Shown: positions 11,467 through 41,542, counted from the first letter of the stretch. The stretch: DNA of 64,000 nucleotides from Bdellovibrionota bacterium (GCA_044356455.1 JBIKWF010000002.1:72910-136909), one strand, 5' to 3'. Numbers and translations are program-made. The notes: generated by a model not told the origin, from the letters alone.

Positions 11467-12234
11467 TCACCCACCGGCAACGGCGGCAAGAATAAACCCG
11501 ACGTCTGCACGCCGCTGTCCGTCAAAGGCGCCCTCTATAAAATTCTCAAATACCGGCCATCGCCGGTGATACACATATGCTGCCCGGGGAACTCTCAGAA
11601 GCTGCGGACAGGCCTCGAGAAACGCTAACTCTTCGAGCAAGTACTGAGCCCCTCTTTCAATTCCAGCCTCCGCAAGAGTGTTCCTCGGTAAACGCCCCTC
11701 AAGAACGCCTCGAGTCGCCTCCTGAACAGACCTTTTAAACTCAGGACTTCGCTCGTAGAGCTCTGCAATTTTTTGCTGCGCCTCAGCATAATCAGTCGCA
11801 CTTATCACGTGAGTGTCCCATTCAACAAACTCAAGCTTCACCCCATGAGCCTGCGCTACACGCTCGCAGCGGTGACGCAAATTGTTGCCTTTAAGTCGCG
11901 CTTTTGCGGCGGCTTGTGCCTCGGAATAGCCAAGCGCCGCAAAAGTATGGCGAGCAGAGGCCGCAGGGATAAAAACGACTACCCGCGAAAAATGCTCAGC
12001 ACAGCCCTTGAGGAGCAGCGCAATCGTATCTTCTCTAAAATAGGTATTCCCTGGACTCATCCCAACAATACAAGTCCCTCGCTCAGAGATGACTTGCCGC
12101 CCCGTGGCAAAGCAATGTTCGTGCCCCTCTGCCGAGAAAAAAACTCCACGAGGGGGCGTCAGAGGAAATTGAAGACCTTGCACCGCGCCTGAAAGCGACA
12201 CTGCGGGATTAGGACTTTCAGGGACGGGTTCCAT
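11467..12234 (-). CDS. tRNA-dependent cyclodipeptide synthase (CDPS, NYH-type)
   Basis: Hallmark motifs GMSPGNTYF (catalytic Ser), YLLEEL and YVYH; ~250 aa. Confidence 0.9.
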   Translation of the reverse strand: MEPVPESPNPAVSLSGAVQGLQFPLTPPRGVFFSAEGHEHCFATGRQVISERGTCIVGMSPGNTYFREDTIALLLKGCAEHFSRVVVFIPAASARHTFAALGYSEAQAAAKARLKGNNLRHRCERVAQAHGVKLEFVEWDTHVISATDYAEAQQKIAELYERSPEFKRSVQEATRGVLEGRLPRNTLAEAGIERGAQYLLEELAFLEACPQLLRVPRAAYVYHRRWPVFENFIEGAFDGQRRADVGFILAAVAGG

Positions 12235-12322: not shown

Positions 12323-13366
12323 ATGACTTTTAATAATCACTTAGCGACTGTCGAGAAGAAGGATAAGCAGATACTCGAGATTCTTGCGCAGAACTGCCGC
12401 ATCCCGCACACCACGCTTGGCGCAGCCCTTGGCGTCTCAAAAGACACTATCGAATACCGCATCCAGCGGCTCGAGCGCGAAGAACTCCTCAAGCAATTCG
12501 TCCTCTTCATTGACGCCCGAAAGCTTGGGCTTACTCGCTACCATCTGCTTCTTTCTTTTGAAGCACCGGTAGGAGATCTCACCGTCGTTTGCAATCAATT
12601 CGCCGCCCATCCCTTTGTGATGTGGGTGAACAGTTTTATTGGACGGTATGATGTTCAAATAATTGTTGATGCGCGAAACGGCTTTCATCTCAACGAAATC
12701 AAGAGTGAACTTTTTGCAAAAACTGCTCTTAAGATTCGAGACTACCGCATCTTAACCCACCTGTCGGACCTTGAGTTCACTCAACTTAATCCTATCCTTG
12801 ATTTAAAGACTGCCTTTGAAAGAAAGGCCGATCACTCTTTCAGTGATATGCTCACGAACAAGCGCTTTCCTGTCTCTGAAACTTTTGAGCTCTGCCCACT
12901 CGCGAAGGGTGATTCGCAGATTCTCAAAGCCCTCGCTGATAATCCGCGCATGAGCATTTCCGATATTTCAGACGCTGCGGGACTCGACAGAGTTACGACG
13001 CGGCGCCACATTCTAAGCCTTATCAAGAAGGGAATAATCTTGAACTTTGGGGGCATACCCAATCTTTCTCGACTAGGATTTGTAACTTATTACCTCCTGG
13101 TAAGAGTGTCTCAGGACACGCCTCTTAGGATACTCAAACGCCCCTTTGAGAAACTCCGGAACATCTTCTATGCAGGCCGCATGCTCGGGGACTACGACAT
13201 GATTCTGTACCTTAATGCGAGAACTCCCGAGGAACTCTACCAGAGCATCTCTCTCTACAAGAATGAGCTGAAGTCTCACATCGTTCACTATGATCTTCTT
13301 ATTCAGGACAAAGTGCACCACTGGAGGCAATTCACTCCGGGCATTTTCCAGAGTTTCGCGAGCTAA
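12323..13366 (+). CDS. Tandem (double) Lrp/AsnC-family transcriptional regulator
   Basis: Two wHTH units (DKQILEILAQNCRIP...; DSQILKALADNPRMSI...), each followed by a RAM-like domain (GRYD / GDYD). Confidence 0.88.
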   Translation: MTFNNHLATVEKKDKQILEILAQNCRIPHTTLGAALGVSKDTIEYRIQRLEREELLKQFVLFIDARKLGLTRYHLLLSFEAPVGDLTVVCNQFAAHPFVMWVNSFIGRYDVQIIVDARNGFHLNEIKSELFAKTALKIRDYRILTHLSDLEFTQLNPILDLKTAFERKADHSFSDMLTNKRFPVSETFELCPLAKGDSQILKALADNPRMSISDISDAAGLDRVTTRRHILSLIKKGIILNFGGIPNLSRLGFVTYYLLVRVSQDTPLRILKRPFEKLRNIFYAGRMLGDYDMILYLNARTPEELYQSISLYKNELKSHIVHYDLLIQDKVHHWRQFTPGIFQSFAS

Positions 13367-20283: not shown

Positions 20284-20429
20284 GCCATTAATCTTACTAA
20301 ACAAAACTACCTCTGAAAATAGCGGGCCCCGCGTACCGAAACACCCCCTCTGCGCATCTAAAATGATGGGTAGCCATACTTACGTCCCTCTTGGGCAGGA
20401 TCTACGGCCGCCGTTTTAAAAGGTTTTCC

Positions 20430-21581
20430 ATGAGTACTCGCTCCTCAAAACCGGCCCCCTCTAAGGAACTAACTGGGATCTCCCTGTGGAACAATCGCCG
20501 CGTACTTATTACGGGCCACACTGGTTTCAAGGGCAGTTGGCTCTCCCTTTGGCTGAGAAGCTACGGAGCTCTTGTCACAGGCTACGCTCTTCGTCCGCCT
20601 ACTTCTCCAAGCATGTTTGAAGCATGCAATCTCAAGGACCACGTCGCCTCCATTGAGGCTGACATTCGCGACTACCCTCGACTTGAGGAGGTCATGCGGG
20701 CGGCGAAACCAGAGATAATCTTTCACCTCGCCGCACAACCACTGGTGCGAGAATCCTACCGAACTCCCAGAGAAACCTTTGAAGTAAACACCATGGGAAC
20801 GGTGAACGTACTCGAAGCCATGCGAACCGTTGGCGGAGTACGCGCACTCGTGACCGTCACCACTGATAAATGTTACGAGAATAAGGAATGGGTCTGGGGC
20901 TATAGGGAGACCGACCGACTTGGCGGACGAGATCCTTACGCCAGCAGCAAGGCCTGCACGGAGCTCGCTGCCGATGCCTACCGACGCTCCTTCTTTCCTG
21001 TCGATGCCTTAGATGACCATGGCGTCGGAATAGCCACGGCGCGCGCGGGAAACGTCATTGGGGGAGGAGACTGGGCTGCGGAGCGGTTAGTGCCAGATTT
21101 GATGCGATGTTTTTCAGAAGGCCGCAAAGCGACACTGAGAAATCCCGCTGCGGTGAGACCGTGGCAACATGTGATTGAACCTCTCTTCGGCTATATAAGT
21201 CTAGCTGAACATCTCTTTAACGGAAGTCCTTGGGCATGTGATGCGTGGAATTTTGGGCCTGACAATGCCGGAATTGAAACGGTCGGCGAACTTGCCGAAC
21301 TCGTTTCAAAGGCGTGGGGCAAAGGATCGGCGCTCGAAGTTCAAGCTCCGGATCCCGCTCTCTATGAAAGCACTCTCCTCTCTCTGGATAGCACGAGAGC
21401 TCAGCAGCTCCTCGACTGGCACCCACGATTTAGCGTTGCTCAGGCAGCCGAAATGACAGTGAAATGGTATAAGCTGTTCTACTCAAAAGCTCCCGCGCAG
21501 GAGCTTCGAGATCTTGCACTTGAGCAGATTGCGAGCTACGGCAATCAAGGCTCACGCAAGGATTTTGAGGCGCGTGCGTAG
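20430..21581 (+). CDS. rfbG: CDP-glucose 4,6-dehydratase
   Basis: TGHTGFKGSW, HLAAQPLV, TTDKCYEN, RAGNVIGGGD, RPWQHV. Confidence 0.95.
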   Translation: MSTRSSKPAPSKELTGISLWNNRRVLITGHTGFKGSWLSLWLRSYGALVTGYALRPPTSPSMFEACNLKDHVASIEADIRDYPRLEEVMRAAKPEIIFHLAAQPLVRESYRTPRETFEVNTMGTVNVLEAMRTVGGVRALVTVTTDKCYENKEWVWGYRETDRLGGRDPYASSKACTELAADAYRRSFFPVDALDDHGVGIATARAGNVIGGGDWAAERLVPDLMRCFSEGRKATLRNPAAVRPWQHVIEPLFGYISLAEHLFNGSPWACDAWNFGPDNAGIETVGELAELVSKAWGKGSALEVQAPDPALYESTLLSLDSTRAQQLLDWHPRFSVAQAAEMTVKWYKLFYSKAPAQELRDLALEQIASYGNQGSRKDFEARA

Positions 21582-21622
21582 GGTTGAGATAATTAGAACG
21601 GAAAGCGGTACAAGGAAAGACC

Positions 21623-22528
21623 GTGCAATTCAAGGGAAAGAACATTCTTTTAACGGGCGCCACCGGCTTTATCGGTAGCCACGTTGCGCACTTGCTCGTT
21701 GAACACGGCTATCACGTCACGGCACTCACTTCTGGCATCACCCCACCTCATCGACTTTCAAACATTCGGCACAAACTCGCATGGCTCTCTCTTGCTGATT
21801 ACCCGTCTCTTCCTGCCGCGCTTTCAAAGGCGGGAAGTATAGAAGGAATCATAAGCACTGCTGTTAGCTACGGCCGTACCGGAGAATCCCAGACCGACCT
21901 GCTCCGTGCCAACGTCATTCAGCCGCTCGAACTCATCGAACACTTTGCGGATCACGGGCTCGAAGTTTTTATCAACGCGGACACTTTTTATCCGCCCACG
22001 CGTGACAGCTATAGTCTCTCCAAACGACAGCTTTCTGATTGGCTCCCTACTATTGCTTGCACGAAGAGAATTGCTATCGTGAACCTCGCCTTGCAACATG
22101 CCTATGGCATAAATGATGGCGTCAAAAAATTTATCCCTTCAATAATTCGAGCCTGCCTTCGAAATGATGAGGGAATCGATCTTACCCGAGGCGAACAGAC
22201 ACGAGACTTTGTTTTCGCCAGTGACGTCGCTGAGGCATTTCTCGCAGCCCTTCAAAGTCCACGGCTTGAAAAAGGCAAATGTATTCAGACTGAAATAGGC
22301 TCGGGGAACGCCATCTCCCTACGACAGGCAGTAGAACTAATTAAAACAAGAACTAATTCTTCAACTAAACTACGCTTCGGGGCGCTGGAGTATGCTCCAC
22401 ACGAAATTATGCACGCCTGCGCCAATTTACAATCCGCTCGTGCCTTAGGCTGGGCACCAAGAACTTCGCTGGACGAGGGAATGGTGCGCACGATCGCTTG
22501 GCATCGCGAGCAGAAGGAGCAGCAATGA
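21623..22528 (+). CDS. NAD-dependent sugar reductase/epimerase (CDP-3,6-dideoxyhexose synthase-like)
   Basis: TGATGFIG, YSLSK; lies between rfbG and rfbF/H. Confidence 0.8.
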   Translation: MQFKGKNILLTGATGFIGSHVAHLLVEHGYHVTALTSGITPPHRLSNIRHKLAWLSLADYPSLPAALSKAGSIEGIISTAVSYGRTGESQTDLLRANVIQPLELIEHFADHGLEVFINADTFYPPTRDSYSLSKRQLSDWLPTIACTKRIAIVNLALQHAYGINDGVKKFIPSIIRACLRNDEGIDLTRGEQTRDFVFASDVAEAFLAALQSPRLEKGKCIQTEIGSGNAISLRQAVELIKTRTNSSTKLRFGALEYAPHEIMHACANLQSARALGWAPRTSLDEGMVRTIAWHREQKEQQ

Positions 22529-23910
22529 CGCTTCAGTCTGAACCTTCCACGAGGGAAGAGCTCATTGCATCAGGGCAGAACCTCTTGCAACAGAACCAGT
22601 TTCTTCTCGCGCTCACCGCGTTTGAGCGTGCTGTCGAGATGGGTCCTCCGCTGGAGAATCTGCAGCTCCTGATGGCCTTCTCTGCTGCACACGCTGGCGT
22701 ATTTGAAAAAGTCCTTCCGGCTCTTCAGAAGGAGCAAGCAACGTTTCCTCAGTCTCAGGCTGCTCATTCTTTCCTTTCTGACATCGAATCGGATTGCTCG
22801 CGAAATGCCTGCTTCAAATCTGGGTTTCAGCAGGGAGGAAGATATCTTCTCGCCGGGCTCTCCCCTGATAGTTCCGGAACGGGAAGATTTCTGGAAGCGC
22901 TGCTACCTATTGCAGAGGCGCGTGGATACCGAAAAATCCACCCAAACATGGGAGGGCGCTTTGGCCTCGCGGAACGTATTCGACTTAGTGGAATCTCAGA
23001 CTCCTCGCTTCTCCTGCTTCATCCACAAACTATCGGCTGGCCTCTCGTCCGAACGCTTCTAAGAAACAGAAATCGAATCGGCATGTATGTGCTCGATAAC
23101 AGCTTTTTTTGTGTGCGTTCATACAATTACCGCGAAGGAAAACTTGGCGAATGTCTCGACTGTGTGGGAAACCTCAGTCGATGCCATGCCAGTTGCGAGC
23201 CGTTTCCATCCGGTGCCGCGAAGCAAGAAACTCTCGGATCTATGCAATCCCTCCTTGAATATTTGCCGCACCTCACGTTTTTTTGCCAAAGCGAGGCACA
23301 AAAGAAATTGATTCTCGGTCACTTCGGCGCACAGACGGAAGCTCATGTGGTTGGAATGAAAACTGCAGAACTTGTTTCACTTGTTGGAACACCCCCCTTC
23401 GATGTGGTGTACCACGCCGAGGAACATCCCGCGAAAGGCTTCTGGTACACCATTGAGCTTGCACGACGACTTCCCGAACTTCGCTTCTTGGTACCGTCTG
23501 CTCGCGAAGATCTCGAGAAGCGCCTCGGTCGCCAGGACTGGCCTTCAAACATTACTTTTAAAGCGCTGCGCTGGGAAAGCGGGCTCGATAAAGAGGTAAG
23601 ACGTGCACGCATGGTGCTTTGTCCAAGCCTCTGGTCAGCAGCAATTGAGGGCGCGGTGCTAAAATCACTGCACGAGAATGGCAACGTCGCGCTTGTGAGA
23701 AGCGAATTTGGGTTCTCTTCGGAGCTCCCCTCAGACCTCGTTCTTCAATTAGCAGCGGAGTCCGAACACGGAGCCGCACAACTTCGCGAGGCTCTCGCTC
23801 TCCCGAGCCGCTCTGCAAAGGCAAAAAGCTGGGGCGCGCAGTATCTTTCATCGGTTCGCCTTGAGTATATTTTTGATATCCTCGATTCAAAACAAAGGGC
23901 ACGCGCATGA
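22525..23910 (+). CDS. Glycosyltransferase-like protein with N-terminal TPR-like helices
   Basis: ATGA overlap with the upstream gene; Cys cluster CLDC...CHASC; KGF...PSLW GT-B-like C-terminus. Confidence 0.65.
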   Translation: MTLQSEPSTREELIASGQNLLQQNQFLLALTAFERAVEMGPPLENLQLLMAFSAAHAGVFEKVLPALQKEQATFPQSQAAHSFLSDIESDCSRNACFKSGFQQGGRYLLAGLSPDSSGTGRFLEALLPIAEARGYRKIHPNMGGRFGLAERIRLSGISDSSLLLLHPQTIGWPLVRTLLRNRNRIGMYVLDNSFFCVRSYNYREGKLGECLDCVGNLSRCHASCEPFPSGAAKQETLGSMQSLLEYLPHLTFFCQSEAQKKLILGHFGAQTEAHVVGMKTAELVSLVGTPPFDVVYHAEEHPAKGFWYTIELARRLPELRFLVPSAREDLEKRLGRQDWPSNITFKALRWESGLDKEVRRARMVLCPSLWSAAIEGAVLKSLHENGNVALVRSEFGFSSELPSDLVLQLAAESEHGAAQLREALALPSRSAKAKSWGAQYLSSVRLEYIFDILDSKQRARA

Positions 23911-24677
23911 AGGTTATTATTCTTGCAGGTGGACTCGGCACACGCCTTGGGGGAATCACCGAGGTGATCCCTAAGCCCATGGTGCGTATTGGTGACCGCC
24001 CTATTCTCTGGCACATCATGAAGCGCTACGCTGCGTATGGCTTCAAGGATTTTGTGCTTAGTCTTGGATACCGAAGCGAGGTGATAAAGGATTATTTTCT
24101 GCGCTATGAAGCGTACAGCGGAGACGTGCAGGTTTCCTTAGGCACAGGAGCAGTAAACCCGCTAAGCAAAAACGATGAGGCAGACTGGAACGTGACCCTC
24201 GCGTATACTGGCCTCAAAGCTCTCAAGGGCGCACGCGTAAAGCGCATTCAGAAGTATCTCGATGAGGTGAACATGCTCACGTACGGCGACGGAGTTGCTG
24301 ATATCGACCTAGGCGCCCTACTCGAGTTCCACAAGTCACATGGCCGTATGGTGACAATTACGGGAGTGTACCCCCCTGCGCGTTTCGGAGAGATTCTTGA
24401 GCAAGATGGCAGACTCATTTCGTTCGAGGAGAAGCCACAGGCTTCAGTGGGATTGATTAACGGCGGATTTATGGTTTTTAACCGCGAGCTTCTCTCATAT
24501 CTCACCGAAGACGAGCGCTGCGACCTTGAAATAGGAGCCTTTCCTAAACTTGCCAGCGAAGGGCAGGTTGCGGTCTACCGCCATCTTGGCAAATGGGAGT
24601 GTGTTGATAACGAACGAGATCTCATTCATTTAAATAAACTTTGGGATGACGGCGAAGCATTTTGGAAGAAATGGTAG
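23907..24677 (+). CDS. rfbF: Glucose-1-phosphate cytidylyltransferase
   Basis: ILAGGLGTRL, PKPMV, TYGDG, INGGF. Confidence 0.93.
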   Translation: MKVIILAGGLGTRLGGITEVIPKPMVRIGDRPILWHIMKRYAAYGFKDFVLSLGYRSEVIKDYFLRYEAYSGDVQVSLGTGAVNPLSKNDEADWNVTLAYTGLKALKGARVKRIQKYLDEVNMLTYGDGVADIDLGALLEFHKSHGRMVTITGVYPPARFGEILEQDGRLISFEEKPQASVGLINGGFMVFNRELLSYLTEDERCDLEIGAFPKLASEGQVAVYRHLGKWECVDNERDLIHLNKLWDDGEAFWKKW

Positions 24678-24699
24678 CGTCATCTCCTAGGCAATACTT

Positions 24700-26331
24700 G
24701 TGAAACAACTTGAGTGCGGCACGATAATAACAGCAAAAGGCCACGTGGCGGAGCCTCCTGCGCCATGGCTTGTGCTTGAACGACTGGACAATTCCTCGTT
24801 AGAAGTCCTTGCACTCTCTGCGCAGCAGAAGACCAAACATAGTCCGGCAATCGCAACGCTTGGCCCTTCGGCAGACCCAGCGTTTCCCATCACTCCCCTC
24901 TTTTGCGACGTTTCCCGCAGATTCCAAATCTCGCTCTCAGGCGAGGAGAAGATCCTTGGAACGGTCTCCTCTTCGTGCAAAGAGGAGATTCTCCGTGGCT
25001 TAGTCAAAAACGAGGCTGAGCGCTTCTACTCCGCATTCCATGCCCCCAAGCTTTCTAAAGCATTCGCGCCAGGCGATCGCATCCCCTATGCCGGCCGCGT
25101 TTACGATTTTGAGGACATGGCCTCCCTGCTCGATTCATCACTTGATTTCTGGCTCACGACCGGAAGATTCTCCGAAGAATTCGAGCGTGCCTTTGCAAAG
25201 TTTTTGGGCCTTAGATTCTCATGCCTGGTTAATTCGGGTTCGTCGGCAAACTTGATTGCTTTTGCAGCGCTCACCTCCCCCCTCCTCAAAGATCGCCAGA
25301 TACAACCAGGAGATGAAGTAATCACCGTAGCCGCGGGCTTTCCGACTACGGCTTCGCCTATTATTCAGTACGGTTGTATCCCCGTCTTCTGTGACATCTC
25401 GGTAATGGATGGCACCTATAATATTGACGTGTCTGCTCTCGAGTCGGCGCGCAGTGAGCGCACCAAGGCAGTCATGCTTGCCCATACTCTCGGCAATCCG
25501 TTTAACCTTAAGGTAGTCACCGAATTTTGCCAGCGCCATAATCTGTGGCTTGTGGAGGACAACTGCGACGCACTTGGCTCTCGCTACCAAGGACAGCTCA
25601 CAGGCACTTTTGGCGATGTGGCGACAAGCAGCTTTTATCCACCGCATCACATGACCATGGGCGAAGGCGGCGCCGTTTACTCCAAACACTTAAAGCTGAA
25701 GCGAATAATCGAGTCATTTCGAGACTGGGGGCGGGACTGCTGGTGCGCTGCCGGAAAAGATAACACCTGCGGAATTCGCTTCGATCAGCAGCTAGGCACG
25801 CTGCCCCGAGGCTATGACCACAAGTATATCTACAGCCATTTTGGCTATAATCTTAAAGCTACCGACATGCAGGCAGCGATTGGCTGCACTCAACTCAAGA
25901 AACTTCCAGATTTCATTAAGAAGCGTCAGCAGAACTGGAAGTTTTTACGTGAGGCTCTTACGGGCCTTAGCGATATTTTTGTGCTGCCAGAGGCTACTGC
26001 GAATTCAGAGCCGAGTTGGTTTGGATTCTTGCTCACCATCAGACCTGAGGTTTCCTCAAGCGCCCAGGCTCCGACCCGTGATTCCTTTGTGCGCCTATTG
26101 GAATCTCTTAACATTCAGACTCGCATGCTGTTCGCAGGTAATCTTTTAAGGCAGCCCTGCTTCGATGAGATAAGAAAGGACCCTAAAAGGTATCGGGTAG
26201 TCGGCAAACTTGAACAAAGTGATCTTGTACTCACCAATACGTTTTGGCTTGGTGTTTATCCGGGGCTCACGGAGGATATGCTTTCCGCCATGGTGCGTGG
26301 AATCTATCAAGCCGTTGGCAGAAAGTCCTAA
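24700..26331 (+). CDS. rfbH: CDP-4-keto-6-deoxyglucose 3-dehydrase with extra N-terminal domain
   Basis: NSGSSANL, AHTLGNPF, EDNCDALG, SFYPPHHMTMGEGG (His in place of Lys), RDWGRDCWC, YDHKY. Confidence 0.93.
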   Translation: MKQLECGTIITAKGHVAEPPAPWLVLERLDNSSLEVLALSAQQKTKHSPAIATLGPSADPAFPITPLFCDVSRRFQISLSGEEKILGTVSSSCKEEILRGLVKNEAERFYSAFHAPKLSKAFAPGDRIPYAGRVYDFEDMASLLDSSLDFWLTTGRFSEEFERAFAKFLGLRFSCLVNSGSSANLIAFAALTSPLLKDRQIQPGDEVITVAAGFPTTASPIIQYGCIPVFCDISVMDGTYNIDVSALESARSERTKAVMLAHTLGNPFNLKVVTEFCQRHNLWLVEDNCDALGSRYQGQLTGTFGDVATSSFYPPHHMTMGEGGAVYSKHLKLKRIIESFRDWGRDCWCAAGKDNTCGIRFDQQLGTLPRGYDHKYIYSHFGYNLKATDMQAAIGCTQLKKLPDFIKKRQQNWKFLREALTGLSDIFVLPEATANSEPSWFGFLLTIRPEVSSSAQAPTRDSFVRLLESLNIQTRMLFAGNLLRQPCFDEIRKDPKRYRVVGKLEQSDLVLTNTFWLGVYPGLTEDMLSAMVRGIYQAVGRKS

Positions 26332-26355
26332 CCGCTTCATCTCAACGGTTACTCA

Positions 26356-26484
26356 GGAGCCCCTGAAAAACCTCGATATTTTATTCTTTCTCTCAGTGTC
26401 CTCTGTGTGCTCTGTGGTTTTTCAACGATTTAAATCAACCACAGAGGACACAGAGATCTCAGAGTGGACTATTAAAGAGGTTAC
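26356..26484. mobile_element. MITE-like element (family A)
   Basis: GGAGCCCCTGAAAAAC ... CTATTAAAGAGGTTAC|CTAA with ctctgtggtt/aaccacagag hairpin. Confidence 0.75.
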
Positions 26485-26715
26485 CTAAGTCACCATTAAA
26501 CCTCATGGGATCCCTGTGTACGAGTGCCCATGAAGCCGATACCAAAGGGACACACAAATTTTCGACCTCAACGCCCCGCAAAACTACGTTTCACAAAAGC
26601 TCGTATTATCGTATGAGCAACCAAGCGCCCCACCTCTGCATCGATCCATATAGGATTGCTGTAGGTAGTGAGAGCGGGGATACTCAAACTATCGTTTTGC
26701 TTGAGCTTTTTTCGA

Positions 26716-28236
26716 ATGACCCAACCTAGCAAAATTTACTCGCTCGACGAGCTCGAGAAAATTCTCGAAGGTAAGCGAAAACTTACTATTGGGCACTGCC
26801 ATGGAGTCTTCGATCTCCTGCATGTGGGTCATCTCAGGCACTTCAAAGAGGCGAAGCATCAATCCGACATTCTTGTGGTCACCCTCACCGCAGACGAATT
26901 CGTAAACAAAGGCCCACATCGGCCGGCATTTAATCAGGATCTCAGGGCAGAAAGCATCGCTGCACTTGAGTGCGTCGATTTCGTTGCCGTGAACCCTTCT
27001 CCCTCCGCAGAGACCGCAATCCAGAAGATTCGCCCCTCTCTTTTTTTCAAGGGCAGTGATTACAAAACCCGAGAGACTCCTCCAGATTCGAAACTGAGTA
27101 CCGAGCTTGCTCTCGTTGAAAAACTTGGGGGCAAAGTTGTATTCACGGACGACATTCAATTTAGCTCTTCCTCTCTGATAAATTCGTTTCTCTCTCCATT
27201 TACCGAGGAAGTAAGTCGCTATCTTGCCGACTTCAGAACACGGCACACCGCAAAATCAATCAATCAGCTCTTAACGAAAGTTCACGATCTAAAAGTACTC
27301 GTCCTTGGCGAAACCGTAATTGACGAATATCACTACTGCGACGCCATCGGGAAAGCAGGTAAAGAACCAGTACTTGTTACTCGCTTTATTTCGGGCGAGC
27401 AGTTTATCGGAGGAGTTCTTGCCATTGCGAACCATGTGGCAGGAATTTGTGCAAAGGTTGACGTCTTAAGCTGCCTTGGGACAAAGAATTCGTTTGAGTC
27501 CTTCATTCGAGAGCGCCTTAGGCCAAACGTCACGCCTCATTTTGTTTTTAATGAGGGGCGGCCGACAATTGTAAAGCTCCGTTACGTAGAGAACTACCTG
27601 CTCCAGAAGCTCTTCGAAGTGTACACGATGGACGACACTCCTGTGCCATCATCTGAAGAAGAAGCGCTTTGTGAAAAACTACGCGCCATTCTTCCGAATT
27701 ACGATGTCGTCATAGTCGCGGATTACGGCCACGGAATGATTTCCGAGCGGGCGCGAGCTTTGATTTGCAAGCACTCAAAATTTCTTGCGGTGAATACCCA
27801 GGCAAACGCGGGAAACAGGGGATTTCACACTATCTCTGCTTACCCGCGCGCAGACTACATTTCATTGTCTTCCATGGAACTTGGTCTCGATCGGCGTACT
27901 CGCGAGGGCGACGTACGAAAGATGATACTAGGTCTACTGGAAACTACTCATTGCAAGACCATCACGGTCACGAGAGGAAAACACGGCATTCTCACCTATA
28001 GCCCTGAGCACGGCTTCGCTGAGGGGCCAGGACTTGCCACAAAAGTAGTCGATCGTATCGGATCAGGCGACGCGGTTCTTGCCATTACGTCCCCCTTCGC
28101 TTCTCTTAACTGCCCGCCAGAGCTTATTGCTTTCCTTGGAAACATCGCGGGATCGGAAGCGGTACGAATCCTAGGCCACAGTTCATTCATCGACCGCTCC
28201 GTTATTCGAAAGGGCGTCGAGTCACTCCTGAAGTAG
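26716..28236 (+). CDS. Bifunctional nucleotidyltransferase / PfkB sugar kinase (HldE-like, reversed domain order)
   Basis: HGVFDLLHVGH N-terminal; DYGHG and VDRIGSGD in the C-terminal kinase. Confidence 0.9.
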   Translation: MTQPSKIYSLDELEKILEGKRKLTIGHCHGVFDLLHVGHLRHFKEAKHQSDILVVTLTADEFVNKGPHRPAFNQDLRAESIAALECVDFVAVNPSPSAETAIQKIRPSLFFKGSDYKTRETPPDSKLSTELALVEKLGGKVVFTDDIQFSSSSLINSFLSPFTEEVSRYLADFRTRHTAKSINQLLTKVHDLKVLVLGETVIDEYHYCDAIGKAGKEPVLVTRFISGEQFIGGVLAIANHVAGICAKVDVLSCLGTKNSFESFIRERLRPNVTPHFVFNEGRPTIVKLRYVENYLLQKLFEVYTMDDTPVPSSEEEALCEKLRAILPNYDVVIVADYGHGMISERARALICKHSKFLAVNTQANAGNRGFHTISAYPRADYISLSSMELGLDRRTREGDVRKMILGLLETTHCKTITVTRGKHGILTYSPEHGFAEGPGLATKVVDRIGSGDAVLAITSPFASLNCPPELIAFLGNIAGSEAVRILGHSSFIDRSVIRKGVESLLK

Positions 28237-33070: not shown

Positions 33071-34162
33071 TTATCTCTGTACTGTTTCGAGCTGCGAGGC
33101 ATTCATCCATATTTTACTGCAAAATCCATGTTGATAACTTTCATCCTGGCAAGGTAGTTCAACACGGCAGCCCTCATACGTATTGCCCCACATCTCAAAC
33201 TGGAGTGATTCTCCAGGATTCAGCGTGACTTTGAAGGTTGGGAAGAAATAACTAATGTGAGGATAGCTGGTTGACTTAGCCACACCATATTTTAGCTTCG
33301 GGGCAACAGCACTCTGACGAACCGTGTAGATTGGACCCTCAACCCAGTTAAGAAAATGCATACTTCTATCCTGGCTAAGAATGAAAGTTCTCGGCGATCT
33401 AACAGAGTCTGGGTTTGTCGCATCTCGTACCATCGCAATCACCCCAATATCGTAAGGGCAGCGCATCGCAACATATCCCGACACTTCCATGAGGGCGTTC
33501 GAGTCGTTACGCCACTCATCCGCATCAGCTGGAGAGATACGACCGCTGGCATGATTATTCGGCCATTCATCAGTTGACATCCCATTAAAAAGAAGCGGCT
33601 CGAGCCGCGTGAGCCCATCTTGTGTTGCATTTGCGGTCACCCGCTGGATGGGAGGCTCAGCGAATCTGAATTGGCGCTTGATGTGGGTGAGGGTCGCAGG
33701 AACAAAACGAAAGTCGGCACCTTCCGCACGTGGCCCTTGAGGTCCTGGCTCTCCCTGCGGCCCTTGGGGCCCAGCCTCTCCCTGCAGCCCCTGTACCCCC
33801 TGTACCCCCTGCAGCCCCTGCAGCCCCTGTAGCCCCTGTAGCCCCTGAGCTCCACGCTCGCCTTGTGGACCTTGAGGTCCAGTATCTCCCTTGGGTCCTT
33901 TGAGCTCCCCGCTACTCAACTTTATCTGCAAAGAAGAAATCTCGAGTTTGGTAGATTCTAATGACTTACCAGCCTCATAAGTGCGGCGGTCAAGCTCGGT
34001 GAGCCTCTGGTCCTGAGTTTTCTGTGAATTGCTCAAACGGCGCACACCTGCCCGCGCAACTTTATCTAGAATCTCAACCTTCTGCGCTTGAGCATGCGAC
34101 TCCGCCGTAGCCAAGATCGCACTAAGCCCAAGTCCTAAGAGGAATCCACACTTCAAATTCAT
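33071..34162 (-). CDS. Secreted collagen-like protein
   Basis: Signal peptide (…AESHA), coiled coil, 19 Gly-X-Y triplets, globular C-terminus; ggagg RBS. Confidence 0.85.
33780..33848. repeat. 9-bp tandem repeat (GLQ/GVQ codons)
   Basis: ccctgcagc/ccctgtacc/ccctgtagc units. Confidence 0.8.
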
Positions 34163-34293
34163 AGCCCTATAACCTCCAGCCCTTAAGTAAATGCTTCTCA
34201 CACGAGATGTCCCGCGCGAGGAGAAGTTCGCTGCCCGCCTCGCGAGTTCTTATCAAGGAATATGCAGCCGAAGTGTTTAGGCGTGACTTAAAA

Positions 34294-34308
34294 TGGGAAA
34301 ATAGTCCA
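34294..34308. promoter_or_regulatory. Candidate operator palindrome
   Basis: TGGGAAAATAGTCCA preceded by ACTTAAAA, same context as 36831. Confidence 0.55.
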
Positions 34309-34443
34309 TTTTTTATGATATCGCTGAGACGTGCTGTTTCGCCTTTAAGCTCATTATTTCAATAGCTTAGATTGAGCCTTAAAATCTGTACTATCCCAGA
34401 GGAAGCGCCGATAGGATATTAAAGGGGAAAAAATCTCACTTCT

Positions 34444-35289
34444 ATGAGCGCGCAATTACCACCTCTCAAAGCACCGCATGCCGTAAAGCTCATGAAACCC
34501 GTGCTTCGCTTGCTGCTTCGTGCAGGGCTTAGATTCCAAGAGCTGCTTGAAGTACTCAAAGTTGCCTTGGTTGAACTTGCCTCGGAAGAAATAAATCGAG
34601 TCTCATCAAAAGTTAACCCAAGCCGAGTGAGCGTGCTCTCGGGTCTTCACCGCAAAGATTCGACCAGAATTCTGAAGAACCGAGAAGTAAAAGAGGTTAC
34701 TCGGGGAGGTGTTATCGCAAAAATACTTGCGCGCTGGGAAGCCGATTCGCGCTTCACCACGAAACAAGGCGCGCCTCGCACCCTTTCATTCGGTCCACCA
34801 GAAAGTGAATTTAGCGCTTTAGTACGGGCGGAAAGCTCCGATTTTAACCCTGGAACAGTGCTGTTTGAACTTGAGCGAATGAAAGTTATACAGCGCACTC
34901 CTCGAGGATTGAAGCTACTCGAAGGCGTTTTTACTAACGTAGAAGATGCTTCTGAGGGGTGGGAAATGCTCGCTCATGATACCGAGCTTCTTATTCAGAG
35001 TGTGGTGCAGAATCTGAGCGAACCTGAAAAGTTAAGAAACCTTCATGCCCGCACGGAATACGACAATGTCTTCTTGGATACGGTTCCCGAGATTCGCCGC
35101 TGGCTTGCCGAGGAAGGCAAGGCTTTTCATAAACGAGTGCGAGAGTTTTTGTCCGATAGAGATAAGGATCTCGCGAGCAATCAGAAAGATAGGCCCTCGG
35201 GAGTGCGTGTATCATTTGGCTCATTTAGCGCGATACAACTGCCGCAATCGAGCAATGAAGAACATCGCACGCTCAAGAAAGGTGACTAG
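34444..35289 (+). CDS. DUF6502-family protein (putative DNA-binding)
   Basis: LMKPVLRLLLRAGL...SRVSVLSGLHRKD...W...F..LV...PGTVLFEL pattern, ~280 aa. Confidence 0.75.
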   Translation: MSAQLPPLKAPHAVKLMKPVLRLLLRAGLRFQELLEVLKVALVELASEEINRVSSKVNPSRVSVLSGLHRKDSTRILKNREVKEVTRGGVIAKILARWEADSRFTTKQGAPRTLSFGPPESEFSALVRAESSDFNPGTVLFELERMKVIQRTPRGLKLLEGVFTNVEDASEGWEMLAHDTELLIQSVVQNLSEPEKLRNLHARTEYDNVFLDTVPEIRRWLAEEGKAFHKRVREFLSDRDKDLASNQKDRPSGVRVSFGSFSAIQLPQSSNEEHRTLKKGD

Positions 35290-35397
35290 GGGTCTGTCCC
35301 GTTCGAAACTTCTGCCGCTAGATGTTTTGGTGGCTGCGGGACAGCCCCCTACGGAGTACATCCGAAATTAAGATTTATGTTTCTAGGGGACACACTC
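35290..35397. mobile_element. 108-bp MITE (family B) flanked by CTAG duplication
   Basis: CTAG|GGGTCTGTCCCGT ... AGGGGACACACTC|CTAG; right ~70 bp similar to the IS1182 end at 16560-16636. Confidence 0.8.
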
Positions 35398-35407
35398 CTA
35401 GCACACA

Positions 35408-35710
35408 TTACATTTCTTCAATGGCGGGACTTATGTCGGAACTGGGTATCGAGATTTCGGTAGAGATACTGCCATTCGTGTTTGTAGTGCTGCAAGTACC
35501 ACCGCCGAAAGTAGAGGAAGGCGGCTTATTCGGCAGTGAGGGGCTGTTCAGTCCTGCAGCTTCAAGCTGAGTAGCGGCGGAGCAGACGCGAGAAGTAACG
35601 GTTTTACCGAACATCCTCCCCCCTGCGACCATCATAAGGGCCACCAAGCCAACGAGCAGCAGTGTCTCAACGAGCGATGAGCCAGATTGTCGGAGGTAAG
35701 GACGTCGCAT
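35408..35710 (-). CDS. Flp/type IV pilin-like protein
   Basis: Prepilin motif RQSG|SSLVE then a hydrophobic helix; C-terminal Cys pair. Confidence 0.65.
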   Translation of the reverse strand: MRRPYLRQSGSSLVETLLLVGLVALMMVAGGRMFGKTVTSRVCSAATQLEAAGLNSPSLPNKPPSSTFGGGTCSTTNTNGSISTEISIPSSDISPAIEEM

Positions 35711-35959
35711 ACCCCCTGATCGCGGGGAAGAGAAGAACTGCTTCAGGGACCAGAACATGTGAAATCCCTAGGCATTAGTCTGCGTACCTAGACAGAGAAA
35801 CCCGCGGGGGAGCCCTTAAGAGAGAACCGGGAATAGCAGCTACTAACGTTGCCTAGTGAATTCTCTCACTCCAAAGCACCTGAGAGAGTTGTATTCTGCC
35901 CTCGTTTTGCAGTGCCTAAGTTGGGGGCACTTATGATGCAAGTGCCCCCAACAGACAGG

Positions 35960-36742
35960 CTACCTGTAGGTGAACGGGCAGAGCAGGATATAATTCAGAA
36001 TTCCTCTGTTTACGTGCAATCCCGCCATGTACCACCCGCGCGGGGGCACATTGAGCTGCCGAGTCGGTTGACCAGGATAGAGCGAGCAGCCTGGTGCTCC
36101 ATTGCATTGAGAGTTGTACGAATCAGCCCAGATGCATCCCGCTCCACCCTCAGGCAATCCAAGCCCCGCAGGATTCGCTATACCAGCCGGGCCTACGGCG
36201 CCTTCCGGTCCCTGGGGCCCCTCTGGTCCGACAGGACCTTGAGCTCCTGTCTCTCCTTTTTCTCCACGCGGCCCTTGCAAACCTTGGTCGCCCTGCGGGC
36301 CCGCAGGACCAGTTTCCCCTTGTATACCCCGGATACCTTGAATTCCCTGAGGGCCTCGCTCTCCAGTTTCGCCTTTCGGCCCCGTAGGGCCTATGGGGCC
36401 TTGATCGCCCCTCGGCCCAACGGACGCAGCGATTTTTTCGTCAATTATTTTATTCGAGATCTTAGTGATATCTTCAGGCGAGGGAATGGAGACTACTGCG
36501 CGAAATCCCTTACGACATTTGCCGCTACTTCCAAGCTCTAGCGCCTGCACTCGAGTCGTAGGACTGATGTTGCGCCCCTCCTGCTTGATGTTCTTCCGCT
36601 GACAGAGAGTAATGCTTTGAGCGGACGCAGAGGTTACTAAGGAAGTTAGCCCCGTAAGCAAAAGTGCGGCGATTAAGACACCCCGCTTCGTCGTTATGTG
36701 AGACGCAAGATCGACCAGATAGTACCGCGAAGAATGAATCAT
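35960..36742 (-). CDS. Secreted collagen-like protein
   Basis: Signal peptide (…SASA), 27 Gly-X-Y triplets, small Cys-rich C-terminal domain. Confidence 0.85.
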
Positions 36743-38511: not shown

Positions 38512-38758
38512 GGATACCTTCTGAAGAACTTTGATTTCCCTTGGCGTCATTCCCTAAAGTATCGTGTGCCAGTGAAATTTGGGGTTAACGCGAAGCCACG
38601 TAAGCCTCGAGGCTGCGGGGAAAGGGATTCAGTGCGACCTCGGCGAAGCCGTATGGCGTAGACGGCTCCGCGTTACTTGAAAACTAATGAATAACGCGGG
38701 GTACCCGAAGGAAAAACAGCTCAGAGGAAAACAAATCTGGGGGCTTTTCAGAGGCTCC
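38512..38758. mobile_element. MITE-like element (family A)
   Basis: Right end GCTTTTCAGAGGCTCC|CTAA; interior similar to 4388-4483; degenerate left end. Confidence 0.6.
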
Positions 38759-38800
38759 CTAAGAAGTCGCTCTTTAACCCAGGACAACTGATCGGCATCA

Positions 38801-40720
38801 TCAAGTGTCACCAAAGATCTTCTTTCTGAGCTGTAAGTGCACCTCATGATAGGCTACCGGGTCTCCCTCTATACCCAAGCGGGTGGCGAGAGCTCTTAGC
38901 CCCATATCAGTTCCTGGCACGCGATAAGCGGCTTTCTGCTTTTGCCTCATCTCGCTCCACTGTTGAGCCGTCATTTTCTCGATTATCTTGGCTGCCAACT
39001 GATCAGGTGTCGCGCACTCCTTGAACAGCTTTTCTGAAATGACAGTGAATTCGCCAAAGATTTTTTTGCCCAGTTGTAAGTGAACCTTGTGATAGCCTAT
39101 CGGGTCTCCCTCTATACCAAAACGGGTGGCGAGAGCTTTTAGCCCCATATCAGCTCCTGGCACGCGATAAGATGCTTTCTGCTTGCTGGTCATCTCACTC
39201 CAATGTTGCGCCGTCATTTTCTCTTTTATCTTGACCGCAAGTTGTTCAGGTGTCGCGCGCTCTAGAAACAGCCTTTCTGAAATGGCAATGCCTTCGCGAA
39301 AGATCTTTTCGCCTAGCTGCAAGTGGACACCCTGATTGTCTATCGGACTTCCCCCGATACCCATGCGTGTGGCGAGTCTCTTGAGCCCCATATCAGAGCC
39401 AGGCACGCGGTAAGCGCCTTTCTGCTTCTGCGTCATCTCACTCCATTGCTTAGCCGTCATTTCCTCCTTGACCTTGGCCGCCAGCTGTTCTGGTGTCACG
39501 CTCTCAAAAAACAGCTTTTCTGAAATGACGGTGCCTTCACCAAAGATCTTTTCCCCGAGGCGCAAGTGATCCTTGTGATTGGTTATGGGACTTCCCGGGA
39601 TACCCATGCGTGTGGCGAGGGCTCTTAGCCCCAAATTCGTTCCCGGCACGCGATAAGCCTTTTTCTGGCTCACCTTCATTCCCCTCCAGTTCTCAGCAGT
39701 CGCTTCTTCTCTGACCTTTGCTGCCAACTGTTCCGCTGTCGCATACTCAACGAACAGCTTTTCAGAGATGACAGTGCCTTCCCCAAAGATCTTTTGGCCC
39801 AGTTGTAAGTGAAACGCTTTAGTGGTCACAGGGTCTCCCTTTACACCAAAAAGTGTGGCGAGAGCCCTAAGCCGAATTTCAGTACCGGGAACTTGATACG
39901 ATTTTCTCTGCGCTTCCGTCATCTCGCTCCAATGCTGAGCCGTCAATTTCTCTCTGATCCTGACTCCTAACTGTTCAGGTGTCGCGCGCTCTATGATCAG
40001 CTCCTCTGAAATGACGGTGCCTTCGCCGAAGATCCTTTCGCCCAGCTGTAAGTGAACCTCGTGGTGGCCTATTGGTTCTCCCCCAACATCGAAACGTGTG
40101 GCGAGTCGTGTAAGTCCCATATCAGTTCCGGGCACACGGAAAGCTGATTTTGCTTTACTCGTCATCAGGCACCATTCCGCGGCCGTCATTTTCTCCCTGA
40201 TCTTGGCTGCCAGCTGATCAGGTGTCGCGCGCTGAACAAAGAGCTCTTCTGAAATGGCGGTGCCATCGCCAAAAATCTTTTCGCCAAGTTGCAAGTGGAC
40301 GTCGTGATTGCTTATGGGACTTCCCGTGATACCCACGCGTCTGGCGAGCTTTGTTAGCCCCATATCCGAGCCGGGCACGCGATAAGCCAATTTCTGCTTC
40401 TGCGTCATCTCGCTCCATTGCTTAGCCGTCATTTCCTCTCTGACCTTGGCCGCAAGCTGTTCAGGTGTCGCGCGCTCAAAGAAAAGCTTATCCGAAATAA
40501 CAGTGCCTTCACCAAAAATCTTCGCTCCCAGCTCTAAATGATAGACGTGATTGCCTATAGGATTGCCAGTAAGGCCAGATAGCCCGAAGCGCCCCGCAAG
40601 CGCAGTTAAGCCCATGTTGGTACCAGGCACGCGGTAAGCGCGTTTTTGCGTCTGCGACATGCGGCACCAAACTTCTGGTGACATAGATTGGGCAGCCTTG
40701 ATTGCATCTCTCAGACCCTC
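38801..40720. repeat. 243-bp coding tandem repeat array
   Basis: tcaggtgtcgc-type anchor recurs at 243-bp spacing (e.g. 39003, 39246). Confidence 0.92.
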
Positions 40721-41542
40721 ATTGCCCCGTACGTCGAGTCGTTTCTTTTCGGAAGTGTCTGCCGGGAAGAGTAATCGCGAGATCTCCTCAAGCCACTGCT
40801 CCTTTCTATGATAGGTGACGGCAAAAATACCGTCCGTGGTTCTTAGTGCCGCTTTTGACCGTCCCTCGTAAAAGTTTGGCCCGAAGATTCTCTGAGCCAC
40901 AAAGGTAATCTCTCGCGATTGGTCACAAACAACTACTTCTTTATCTATGCCGGGGATCTCAACGATTACATAAGGCTCTTTCCGCATCATGTTCTCTCGC
41001 AATGCGCCAGCACGGACAACTATATCCTCTTTGAAAATTCCGAGATCTTGAAGCTGAGTAATGAGCTGCATGAGCCTCGGCTGATACTCGCCCTCGGTCC
41101 ATCCCGCCCCACTACCAAGTAAAGGCGCAGCTTGAATGTCTGTCTCCACGTACACTTGAGGACTGTGGATAACGAGAACTCCTAGACCATCCAGCTTGCT
41201 GAGCACCTCCTTCGAGCTCCCACTGGAGAGAGCCCCGTACAGAGTATCTCCTGCTTCGCCCAGCAACTGCCCCAACGAGGCGATATCTGAATCTCCAAGC
41301 GAACTAACCCATGCTCGAAGAACCCCCTCCTCGTGAGACCCTAATGCCTGGAGAAAAAGTTTTTCGAGAGAAACTATTCGGCTCCAGAAGACCTTGTAGC
41401 TTTCTTCACCAAGATCTAGTTCGCGAATTGCCTCTCTTACCGCGGCAGTCTGGGACCTTAAGTGCTCGAGAGTTTGCTCTGGAATGTGAGGTGGATGATT
41501 AGGGATTTGACACCCCAAATGCGGTTGGTTCATAGAGGTCAC
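38801..41542 (-). CDS. Large tandem-repeat protein (N-terminal unique domain + 8 x ~81-aa repeats)
   Basis: 913-aa ORF; unit ATPEQLAAK...W..M..KQK.AYRVPG.DMGL..LA.R.G..G.PI...H.HLQLG.KIFGEGTVISE.LF recurs every 243 bp. Confidence 0.9.
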   Translation of the reverse strand: MTSMNQPHLGCQIPNHPPHIPEQTLEHLRSQTAAVREAIRELDLGEESYKVFWSRIVSLEKLFLQALGSHEEGVLRAWVSSLGDSDIASLGQLLGEAGDTLYGALSSGSSKEVLSKLDGLGVLVIHSPQVYVETDIQAAPLLGSGAGWTEGEYQPRLMQLITQLQDLGIFKEDIVVRAGALRENMMRKEPYVIVEIPGIDKEVVVCDQSREITFVAQRIFGPNFYEGRSKAALRTTDGIFAVTYHRKEQWLEEISRLLFPADTSEKKRLDVRGNEGLRDAIKAAQSMSPEVWCRMSQTQKRAYRVPGTNMGLTALAGRFGLSGLTGNPIGNHVYHLELGAKIFGEGTVISDKLFFERATPEQLAAKVREEMTAKQWSEMTQKQKLAYRVPGSDMGLTKLARRVGITGSPISNHDVHLQLGEKIFGDGTAISEELFVQRATPDQLAAKIREKMTAAEWCLMTSKAKSAFRVPGTDMGLTRLATRFDVGGEPIGHHEVHLQLGERIFGEGTVISEELIIERATPEQLGVRIREKLTAQHWSEMTEAQRKSYQVPGTEIRLRALATLFGVKGDPVTTKAFHLQLGQKIFGEGTVISEKLFVEYATAEQLAAKVREEATAENWRGMKVSQKKAYRVPGTNLGLRALATRMGIPGSPITNHKDHLRLGEKIFGEGTVISEKLFFESVTPEQLAAKVKEEMTAKQWSEMTQKQKGAYRVPGSDMGLKRLATRMGIGGSPIDNQGVHLQLGEKIFREGIAISERLFLERATPEQLAVKIKEKMTAQHWSEMTSKQKASYRVPGADMGLKALATRFGIEGDPIGYHKVHLQLGKKIFGEFTVISEKLFKECATPDQLAAKIIEKMTAQQWSEMRQKQKAAYRVPGTDMGLRALATRLGIEGDPVAYHEVHLQLRKKIFGDT

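Follow-up and report, generated by a model that had tools for sequence, protein, structure and literature searches.

We found that a gene of a Bdellovibrionota bacterium from a lake (GCA_044356455.1, JBIKWF010000002.1:72910-136909; the whole stretch of 64,000 nucleotides is referred to below as the window) encodes a protein, P0001, which we regard, with a probability of roughly 0.6, as a one-gene DNA-targeting device composed of an effector end and a string of small reader domains. The string consists of eight tandem units of about 81 amino acids (aa), which differ most consistently at positions 25, 29, 41, and 55. The idea that such units read nucleic acid, proposed in a sequence-only reading of the region, is supported by four observations taken together: the same hot sites recur in separately expanded arrays, three of them evolve at an omega (the ratio of nonsynonymous to synonymous substitution rates, dN/dS) of about 2.2, the variable patches lie on a basic, covarying face, and the array occupies a slot that is filled by helix-turn-helix (HTH) arrays in other proteins.

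The gene lies on the minus strand (38801..41533) and encodes 910 aa from an ATG at 41533, the form held in NCBI; the minus-strand open reading frame (ORF) extends over 38801-41542 and would encode 913 aa if translation started from the upstream GTG at 41542. The repeat organization given by the sequence-only reading (eight copies of approximately 243 bp/81 aa, the first divergent and the last truncated) was borne out by Tandem Repeats Finder (period 243, 7.2 copies, score 1470, over 38811-40558) and by the spacing of the VPG motif along the protein (84, 81, 81, 81, 81, 81, 81), and the scaffold residues and patch residues listed there for positions 24-29, 41-42, and 55-59 are correct. The units start at residues 270, 354, 435, 516, 597, 678, 759, and 840; the first one carries a 3-aa insertion and the last one ends at position 71. 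All on the minus strand, they display at positions 25/29/41/55 the residues Q/R/T/G in the divergent, 84-aa unit 1 (40475..40726, residues 270-353), Q/L/T/S in unit 2 (40232..40474, residues 354-434), S/S/T/G in unit 3 (39989..40231, residues 435-515), E/K/R/T in unit 4 (39746..39988, residues 516-596), V/K/R/T in unit 5 (39503..39745, residues 597-677), Q/G/K/D in unit 6 (39260..39502, residues 678-758), S/A/K/G in unit 7 (39017..39259, residues 759-839), and Q/A/R/A in unit 8 (38804..39016, residues 840-910), which is devoid of the final linker helix. The highest 19-residue hydropathy of the protein is 0.9; thus, the protein has no membrane segment, in agreement with the initial description.

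The gene is tiled by contigs from other lake runs, and in run X2 a single contig of 1585 bases covers 38670-40254 with zero mismatches, which indicates that the array did not arise through misassembly. No joints were found in the contigs of four sequencing runs, and the runs listed as containing the gene include no RNA dataset. Contigs of runs X3 and X4 carry a 10-base deletion near window position 41072 that would frameshift the N-terminal domain, and P0202, a cluster member of 167 aa, diverges from the protein at residue 152; a frameshifted, broken allele is therefore probably in circulation. The G+C content at third codon positions (GC3) of the gene is 0.545 (genome mean 0.534, sd 0.036), and neither tblastn nor four hidden Markov models (HMMs) detected a paralogue in the same genome.

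The protein is not the orphan it was initially taken for. A word-indexed search returned 4 proteins, and the profile built from them retrieved 964 clusters (50% identity) at E <= 0.001, 222 of which matched at E <= 1e-30. The figures on homologues given below refer to the best 150 of these 964 clusters, from which 716 units were drawn. The N-terminal region, described at first as unique, is a domain common to 112 of the 150, and 109 of these 112 carry 1-11 units; 3-9 units follow an SF2 helicase of the ResIII/DEAD type in 19 homologues, while another 19 consist of units only, many of them being fragments. Across the family, the period of the unit ranges from 74 to 99 aa. Neither the unit nor the N-terminal domain gave a usable match in Pfam, PHROGs, PADLOC, NCBIfam, or the PDB sequences. 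The best Pfam row, H2TH (E 2.4e-6, 27.9 bits), stays under the cut-off of 34.7 with no single stretch passing it, and was rejected as a repeat-sum artefact. ESM Atlas provided no usable match for the whole protein or the domain alone, which says nothing about novelty, and two pattern sets run against IMG/VR gave 60 and 17 pattern matches, none of them confirmed, within a reach limited by the patterns. No description of this family was found in the full-text literature searched, the coverage of which mostly leaves out subscription papers and the supplement of PMC11417379 (100 candidates). The repeat belongs to a large and widespread family, undescribed in the literature searched.

The distribution of the gene is patchy. 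Among the genomes of relatives, 2 of 40 match, with none in the same-genus genome (91% complete). Within the phylum, a broader profile detected members in 11 of 124 genomes, the host's own among them, and 6 of these 11 have the 81-aa unit type; it also detected members in 13 of 401 sampled genomes of the phylum of a record labelled Saccharibacteria, nearly all of these combining the N-terminal domain with other repeat types. A further record, labelled Deltaproteobacteria bacterium, belongs to the same order as the host of the window. In one locus (L003 1-1740), a single unit is encoded in a short ORF immediately behind a gene pair, which we take to be an AbiEi/AbiEii-type toxin-antitoxin module.

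To locate the variable sites, we considered the 119 arrays with at least 4 units and kept those whose internal identity reaches 55% or more, 37 in all (36 besides P0001). In these 36 other arrays, the within-array mismatch is highest at positions 25 (0.84), 41 (0.81), 29 (0.78), and 55 (0.78), followed by 54, 52, 56, and 24; for positions that vary equally between proteins (34, 58, 59, 71, 19, and 10) it is just 0.30-0.43. The nearest neighbour of 198 of 208 units is located in the same protein, so the arrays expanded separately, and the 8 helicase arrays and the 29 others yield the identical four leading sites. The three patches seen initially are in this way narrowed as candidate specificity sites to positions 25, 29, 55, and 41. 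The statement that variation is confined to the patches does not hold, as in units 2-8 of P0001 they make up 20% of the positions yet account for 34% of the entropy, and the ten positions with entropy of at least 1.8 bits fall equally within (25, 29, 55, 56, and 58) and outside the patches (18, 19, 47, 50, and 80). Unit number differs among relatives: the close relatives P0233, P0229, and P0006 have 7, 4, and 6 units, respectively, and the first two show repeated and chimeric residue sets. Among alleles of the relative P0004 (n = 13, one block-exchanged allele excluded), 9 of 27 hot sites are polymorphic; for control sites the count is 3 of 79, and for all other sites 19 of 439. Arrays are re-expanded in each lineage, alter their unit number, and exchange units between alleles, while a few positions are driven to differ.

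For the selection test, sites were picked on 33 arrays without DNA sequence and tested on 6 of the 15 arrays with DNA (34 units), the other 9 being too diverged. By pairwise counting, dN/dS at the four sites amounts to 1.05-1.15 (not significantly above 1); 12 control variable sites give 0.32-0.36 and the remaining positions 0.23-0.24. The codon likelihood model, a purpose-written script in which gene conversion may bias omega, gave a hot-site omega of 1.65 (likelihood ratio test, LRT, 10.5, p 0.001), with 0.21 for the scaffold and 0.40 for the control sites. Array by array, the hot-site values are 2.37 (P0001, LRT 9.0), 1.15, 4.28, 1.17, 2.40 (LRT 4.4), and 1.72. When a local synonymous rate was allowed, hot-site omega rose to 1.98 (p 0.0001), and 13 disjoint pairs, which require no tree, gave 1.59 (p 0.039) and 1.94 (p 0.007). 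A mixture fit in which no sites were named assigned only positions 25, 29, and 55 to the class at omega 2.2 (posterior >= 0.99), with position 41 at about 1. Despite the possible gene-conversion bias, the signal of diversifying selection holds through the checks made.

In the predicted fold, the unit is a compact domain of six helices (approximately 4-14, 17-21, 25-30, 40-47, 57-68, and 73-82), with positions 25 and 29 one turn apart on helix 3, position 41 at the start of helix 4, and position 55 just ahead of helix 5. Covariation across 695 units links K28 with H60 (z 5.0), P53 (3.9), H57 (3.2), and K42 (2.5), and more weakly Q25 with S55 (2.4) and L29 with I54 (2.3), Q25 being coupled to 55-57. 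These couplings imply that the three patches come together around Lys/Arg28, which is 83% conserved. The segment 24-60 has a net charge of +2.8 per unit, compared to -1.1 elsewhere, and Glu makes up 3% of residues at hot sites vs. 18% at control surface sites. That the patches would form one basic face, a point which the sequence-only reading proposed to check, agrees with these data. Foldseek found no match in PDB and BFVD at E <= 0.001, and the VIA-align match lists are dominated by the N-terminal bundle, so that they barely probe the fold of the unit itself.

The array is preceded by an acidic N-terminal helical bundle (41225..41488, minus strand, residues 16-103) and an alpha/beta domain (40757..41218, minus strand, residues 106-259) with near-invariant R153, R184, Y188, K227, and W247. 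The fold of the latter appears to resemble the five-stranded alpha/beta C-terminal domain (CTD) of TnsE (PDB 5d16, Pfam PF18623). Homology with TnsE was tried and rejected, as hhalign gave a probability of 0.3-0.6% with a score at the shuffle mean, also via the wider family; PF18623 found nothing in the host genome at E <= 1. Catalytic-type residues (Arg, Arg, Tyr, and Lys) are conserved over 46 aligned N-terminal domains, while an acidic metal-binding set is not conserved in the wider family, where D170 and E192 are missing and E208 is frequently replaced by N. No nuclease fold occurs among the structural matches listed, in which the domain was not searched by itself. A separate family (L041 484-1701, P0184-P0201) has a homologue of this domain at its own C-terminus (hhalign probability 98.9%) and no repeats; the equivalents of the Arg, Tyr, Lys, and Trp are kept there, R184 is not.

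The same N-terminal domain is combined with several kinds of arrays. L047, L057, and L059 carry HTH arrays recognized by Pfam. Two of them (L047 1465-3396 and L059 1378-3381, on one contig, G510:C19) are adjoining genes whose HTH units, 5 in the former and no fewer than 7 in the latter, are nearly identical. Variation among these units falls on the wing and on the starts of two helices, the first HTH helix and the recognition helix. These are the classic DNA-reading places of HTH domains, and L047/L059 represent a second candidate code-like array, this one with a recognizable fold. The 81-aa unit aligns with this HTH unit over 17 columns (probability 43%), and within this alignment position 41 pairs with the start of the first HTH helix; in the 81-aa unit, helices 4 and 5 are separated by a 10-residue loop. 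A third, MerR/HTH-like repeat type of about 68 aa (weak Pfam rows) follows the N-terminal domain in eight more loci (L030, L038, L045, L046, L048, L049, L057, and L058) as well as in P0102 and P0141, and is in places preceded by one unit of the 81-aa type. P0102 and P0141 have one such unit followed by a different repeat type, and P0050 is also a mixed array. Other, unrelated repeat or C-terminal regions are found on this domain in L019 (7611-9908), L037, L050, L051, L052, L053, L054, L056, and P0050; the L051 unit in our view resembles an integrase repeat, a call that Pfam did not make. P0124 comprises a helicase, 8 units, and a sigma-70 region 4-like end, and P0146 a weak match to the helicase-associated (HA) domain followed by 81-aa-type units. 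On the unit tree, helicase and non-helicase labels change 11 times (shuffled mean 17.9, minimum 15); the two kinds of arrays are thus intermixed and the effector was exchanged several times. Module swapping, as seen in these architectures, is the strongest outside evidence for DNA reading.

Based on these data, we propose that each unit docks on duplex DNA, the backbone being gripped by Lys/Arg28 and the helix starts, and that it would read a few bases via residues 25, 29, 55, and 41 in a zinc-finger-like manner. The array would add up these readings to a long or multi-part site and deliver there the TnsE-CTD-like alpha/beta domain, which may act as a duplex clamp or as an enzyme; other members would deliver their SF2 helicase instead. 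Retargeting could proceed through recombination between units and point changes at contact residues. That the units bind nucleic acid is very likely, and that they do so sequence-specifically through the hot residues is probable; that there is a code which transfers between units is a tentative suggestion. The most likely job, which is the weakest step of the proposal, would be the recognition of fast-changing foreign DNA, e.g., of phages or mobile elements. The fast change of the hot sites points to a conflict, most simply with such DNA, and we consider the chances of a role in defence rather than in another conflict about even.

Alternative explanations were weighed as well. The variable face could bind fast-changing proteins, either phage triggers or the host and prey proteins of a parasitic or predatory bacterium, in the manner of leucine-rich, ankyrin, or tetratricopeptide-like repeats, with the N-terminal domain or helicase as output. 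Positive selection at a few surface residues is equally typical of arms races between proteins, 26% of hot-site residues are hydrophobic, and the unit itself has no significant match to any DNA-binding family. We nevertheless find protein sensing unlikely, as the variable segment carries positive charge and is poor in Glu, the protein is devoid of a membrane segment, units are fused to SF2 helicases, and the array swaps with HTH arrays on the N-terminal domain and even mixes with other repeat types in one chain. Alternatively, the units might be a non-specific DNA or RNA tether that grips the backbone for avidity or processivity, as proposed for HA repeats, in which case the hot sites would be the least constrained ones and omega would be inflated by gene conversion. 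The pairwise dN/dS near 1 fits this explanation, 4 of the 6 arrays are not significant singly, and the TnsE-CTD contacts duplex DNA but no bases, according to PMC12153342. Yet, ordinary variable surface sites have an omega of 0.40, with a gap up to the class at 2.2, values above 1 persist on tree-free disjoint pairs, and arrays with and without a helicase vary at the same sites, which makes a mere tether improbable.

There are free-standing homing endonucleases with strings of small DNA-binding modules. It is conceivable, if rather improbable as well, that the gene is a selfish element of this kind, with the N-terminal domain as an unrecognized nuclease or nickase and the array as a retargetable recognition arm, selection arising from retargeting and not from defence; this explanation has the DNA-reading step in common with our proposal and differs in the job. 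It would account for a solitary gene among unrelated housekeeping genes, the patchy occurrence in relatives, the catalytic-type residues of the 46 aligned domains, and the frameshifted allele. It agrees less well with the loss of the acidic set in the wider family, the structural matches listed, none of which is a nuclease fold (the domain not being searched by itself), the GC3 matching that of the host, and the lack of terminal repeats or a transposase adjoining the gene. As for the defence role within the proposed DNA-targeting device, the gene context gives no confirmation of it. PADLOC gave weak matches to helicase cores only, with no defence-island context. Apart from two pairs, no gene family is seen repeatedly next to the gene across 39 loci, the neighbours being housekeeping genes.

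In the window, the gene stands between an adenylate cyclase gene and a nucleotide-sugar cluster, and its flanks are non-syntenic in the four same-family genomes searched for an empty site. Just downstream of it is a palindromic element (38586-38765) similar to repetitive extragenic palindromes or miniature inverted-repeat transposable elements, for which blastn gave 86 hits, spread over 53 of 216 contigs (E <= 0.001, self included); folded as DNA, it is no better than shuffles (z -1.26). We set it aside as a target or mobile end of the array, as it is a genome-wide repeat present on one side of the gene only. The flanking region contains large nucleotide-sugar/polysaccharide biosynthesis clusters at 20391-28233 and 42556-63620 (RfbH, dehydratases, aminotransferases, and a split transketolase). 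Other features of the window include a tRNA-dependent cyclodipeptide synthase (11470-12234; TIGR04539, 143 bits, cut-off 45), a 347-aa protein with two Lrp/AsnC-type HTH regions (12323-13363), and two secreted-looking collagen-repeat proteins (PF01391) flanking a DUF6502 gene and a short pilin-like ORF (33071-36742).

Protein scaffolds that read DNA through a modular code are rare in nature, and every one discovered, i.e., zinc fingers and transcription activator-like effectors (TALEs), has become a tool. The family described here offers a large natural training set, in which the candidate specificity residues are cut to four positions and many young arrays differ almost solely at these. If a transferable code existed, it could be worked out from thousands of natural units, which would also provide a new programmable scaffold for DNA binding. 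Moreover, one effector domain is joined to several unrelated DNA-binding arrays in bacteria that have been little studied, which suggests protein-guided, evolvable DNA recognition in prokaryotes.

C2H2 zinc-finger arrays (KRAB zinc-finger proteins, PRDM9) are small beads-on-a-string domains with about four specificity residues near helix starts and an N-terminal effector; their scaffold evolves in concert, contact residues are under positive selection, and alleles differ in unit number. Positive selection on a few helix-start residues over a homogenized scaffold is also present in the 81-aa arrays. These are, in contrast, bacterial, their code is a candidate only, and the unit has no conserved Cys and only H60 (41%), whereas C2H2 fingers are 28 aa long with Cys2His2 zinc ligands. 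It is an attractive though doubtful idea that the family is a bacterial counterpart of KRAB zinc-finger arrays, i.e., that a module which reads a few bases through 25, 29, 41, and 55 by a transferable code keeps pace with foreign DNA through recombination and serves interchangeable effectors (the TnsE-CTD-like domain, perhaps a new enzyme, or an SF2 helicase). The HTH and MerR-like arrays (L047, L057, L059, and L046) share the effector domain, the layout, and the helix-start variation, but have another unit fold, with the likeness to the 81-aa unit limited to the 17 columns.

HA (PF03457) arrays sit on helicases in a comparable layout, as reported in bioRxiv 10.1101/2024.11.13.623437. Tandem units behind a ResIII-type SF2 helicase occur likewise in the 19 homologues mentioned above, not in P0001; the 81-aa unit is longer than the 64 profile positions of HA and is mostly found behind a non-helicase domain, and at the curated cut-off PF03457 matched neither P0001, nor 20 members of A4 (top 25 families listed), nor the unit regions of 46 homologues. 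Unlike TnsE of Tn7, P0001 has no TnsE N-terminal domain and no accompanying tnsABCD genes, and the domain stands N-terminal to the array. Pentatricopeptide repeat, PUF, and mTERF proteins are built of solenoid repeats of 30-36 aa, in contrast to the 81-aa unit, which has no Pfam match. TALE and STAR proteins, as described in PMC11417379, have 34-aa units with a single di-residue (12-13) that reads one base per unit, and are delivered by type III secretion. The near-identical tandem scaffolds with few hypervariable positions are alike, whereas the 81-aa units are globular, with four separated sites (25, 29, 41, and 55) and variable linkers; P0001 gives 10 Pfam rows at E <= 1, and the TAL effector repeat is not one of them. 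The STAR, NORD, MIRAGE, MOON, and pTERF families, as described in that source, do not agree in host or architecture. Of the TALE-like reader suggested initially, the constant scaffold with few variable sites on a basic face and an N-terminal effector is retained as the probable form, and the TALE form, given the six-helix unit of 81 aa, is not; zinc-finger or HA/HTH arrays are closer analogues than TALE.
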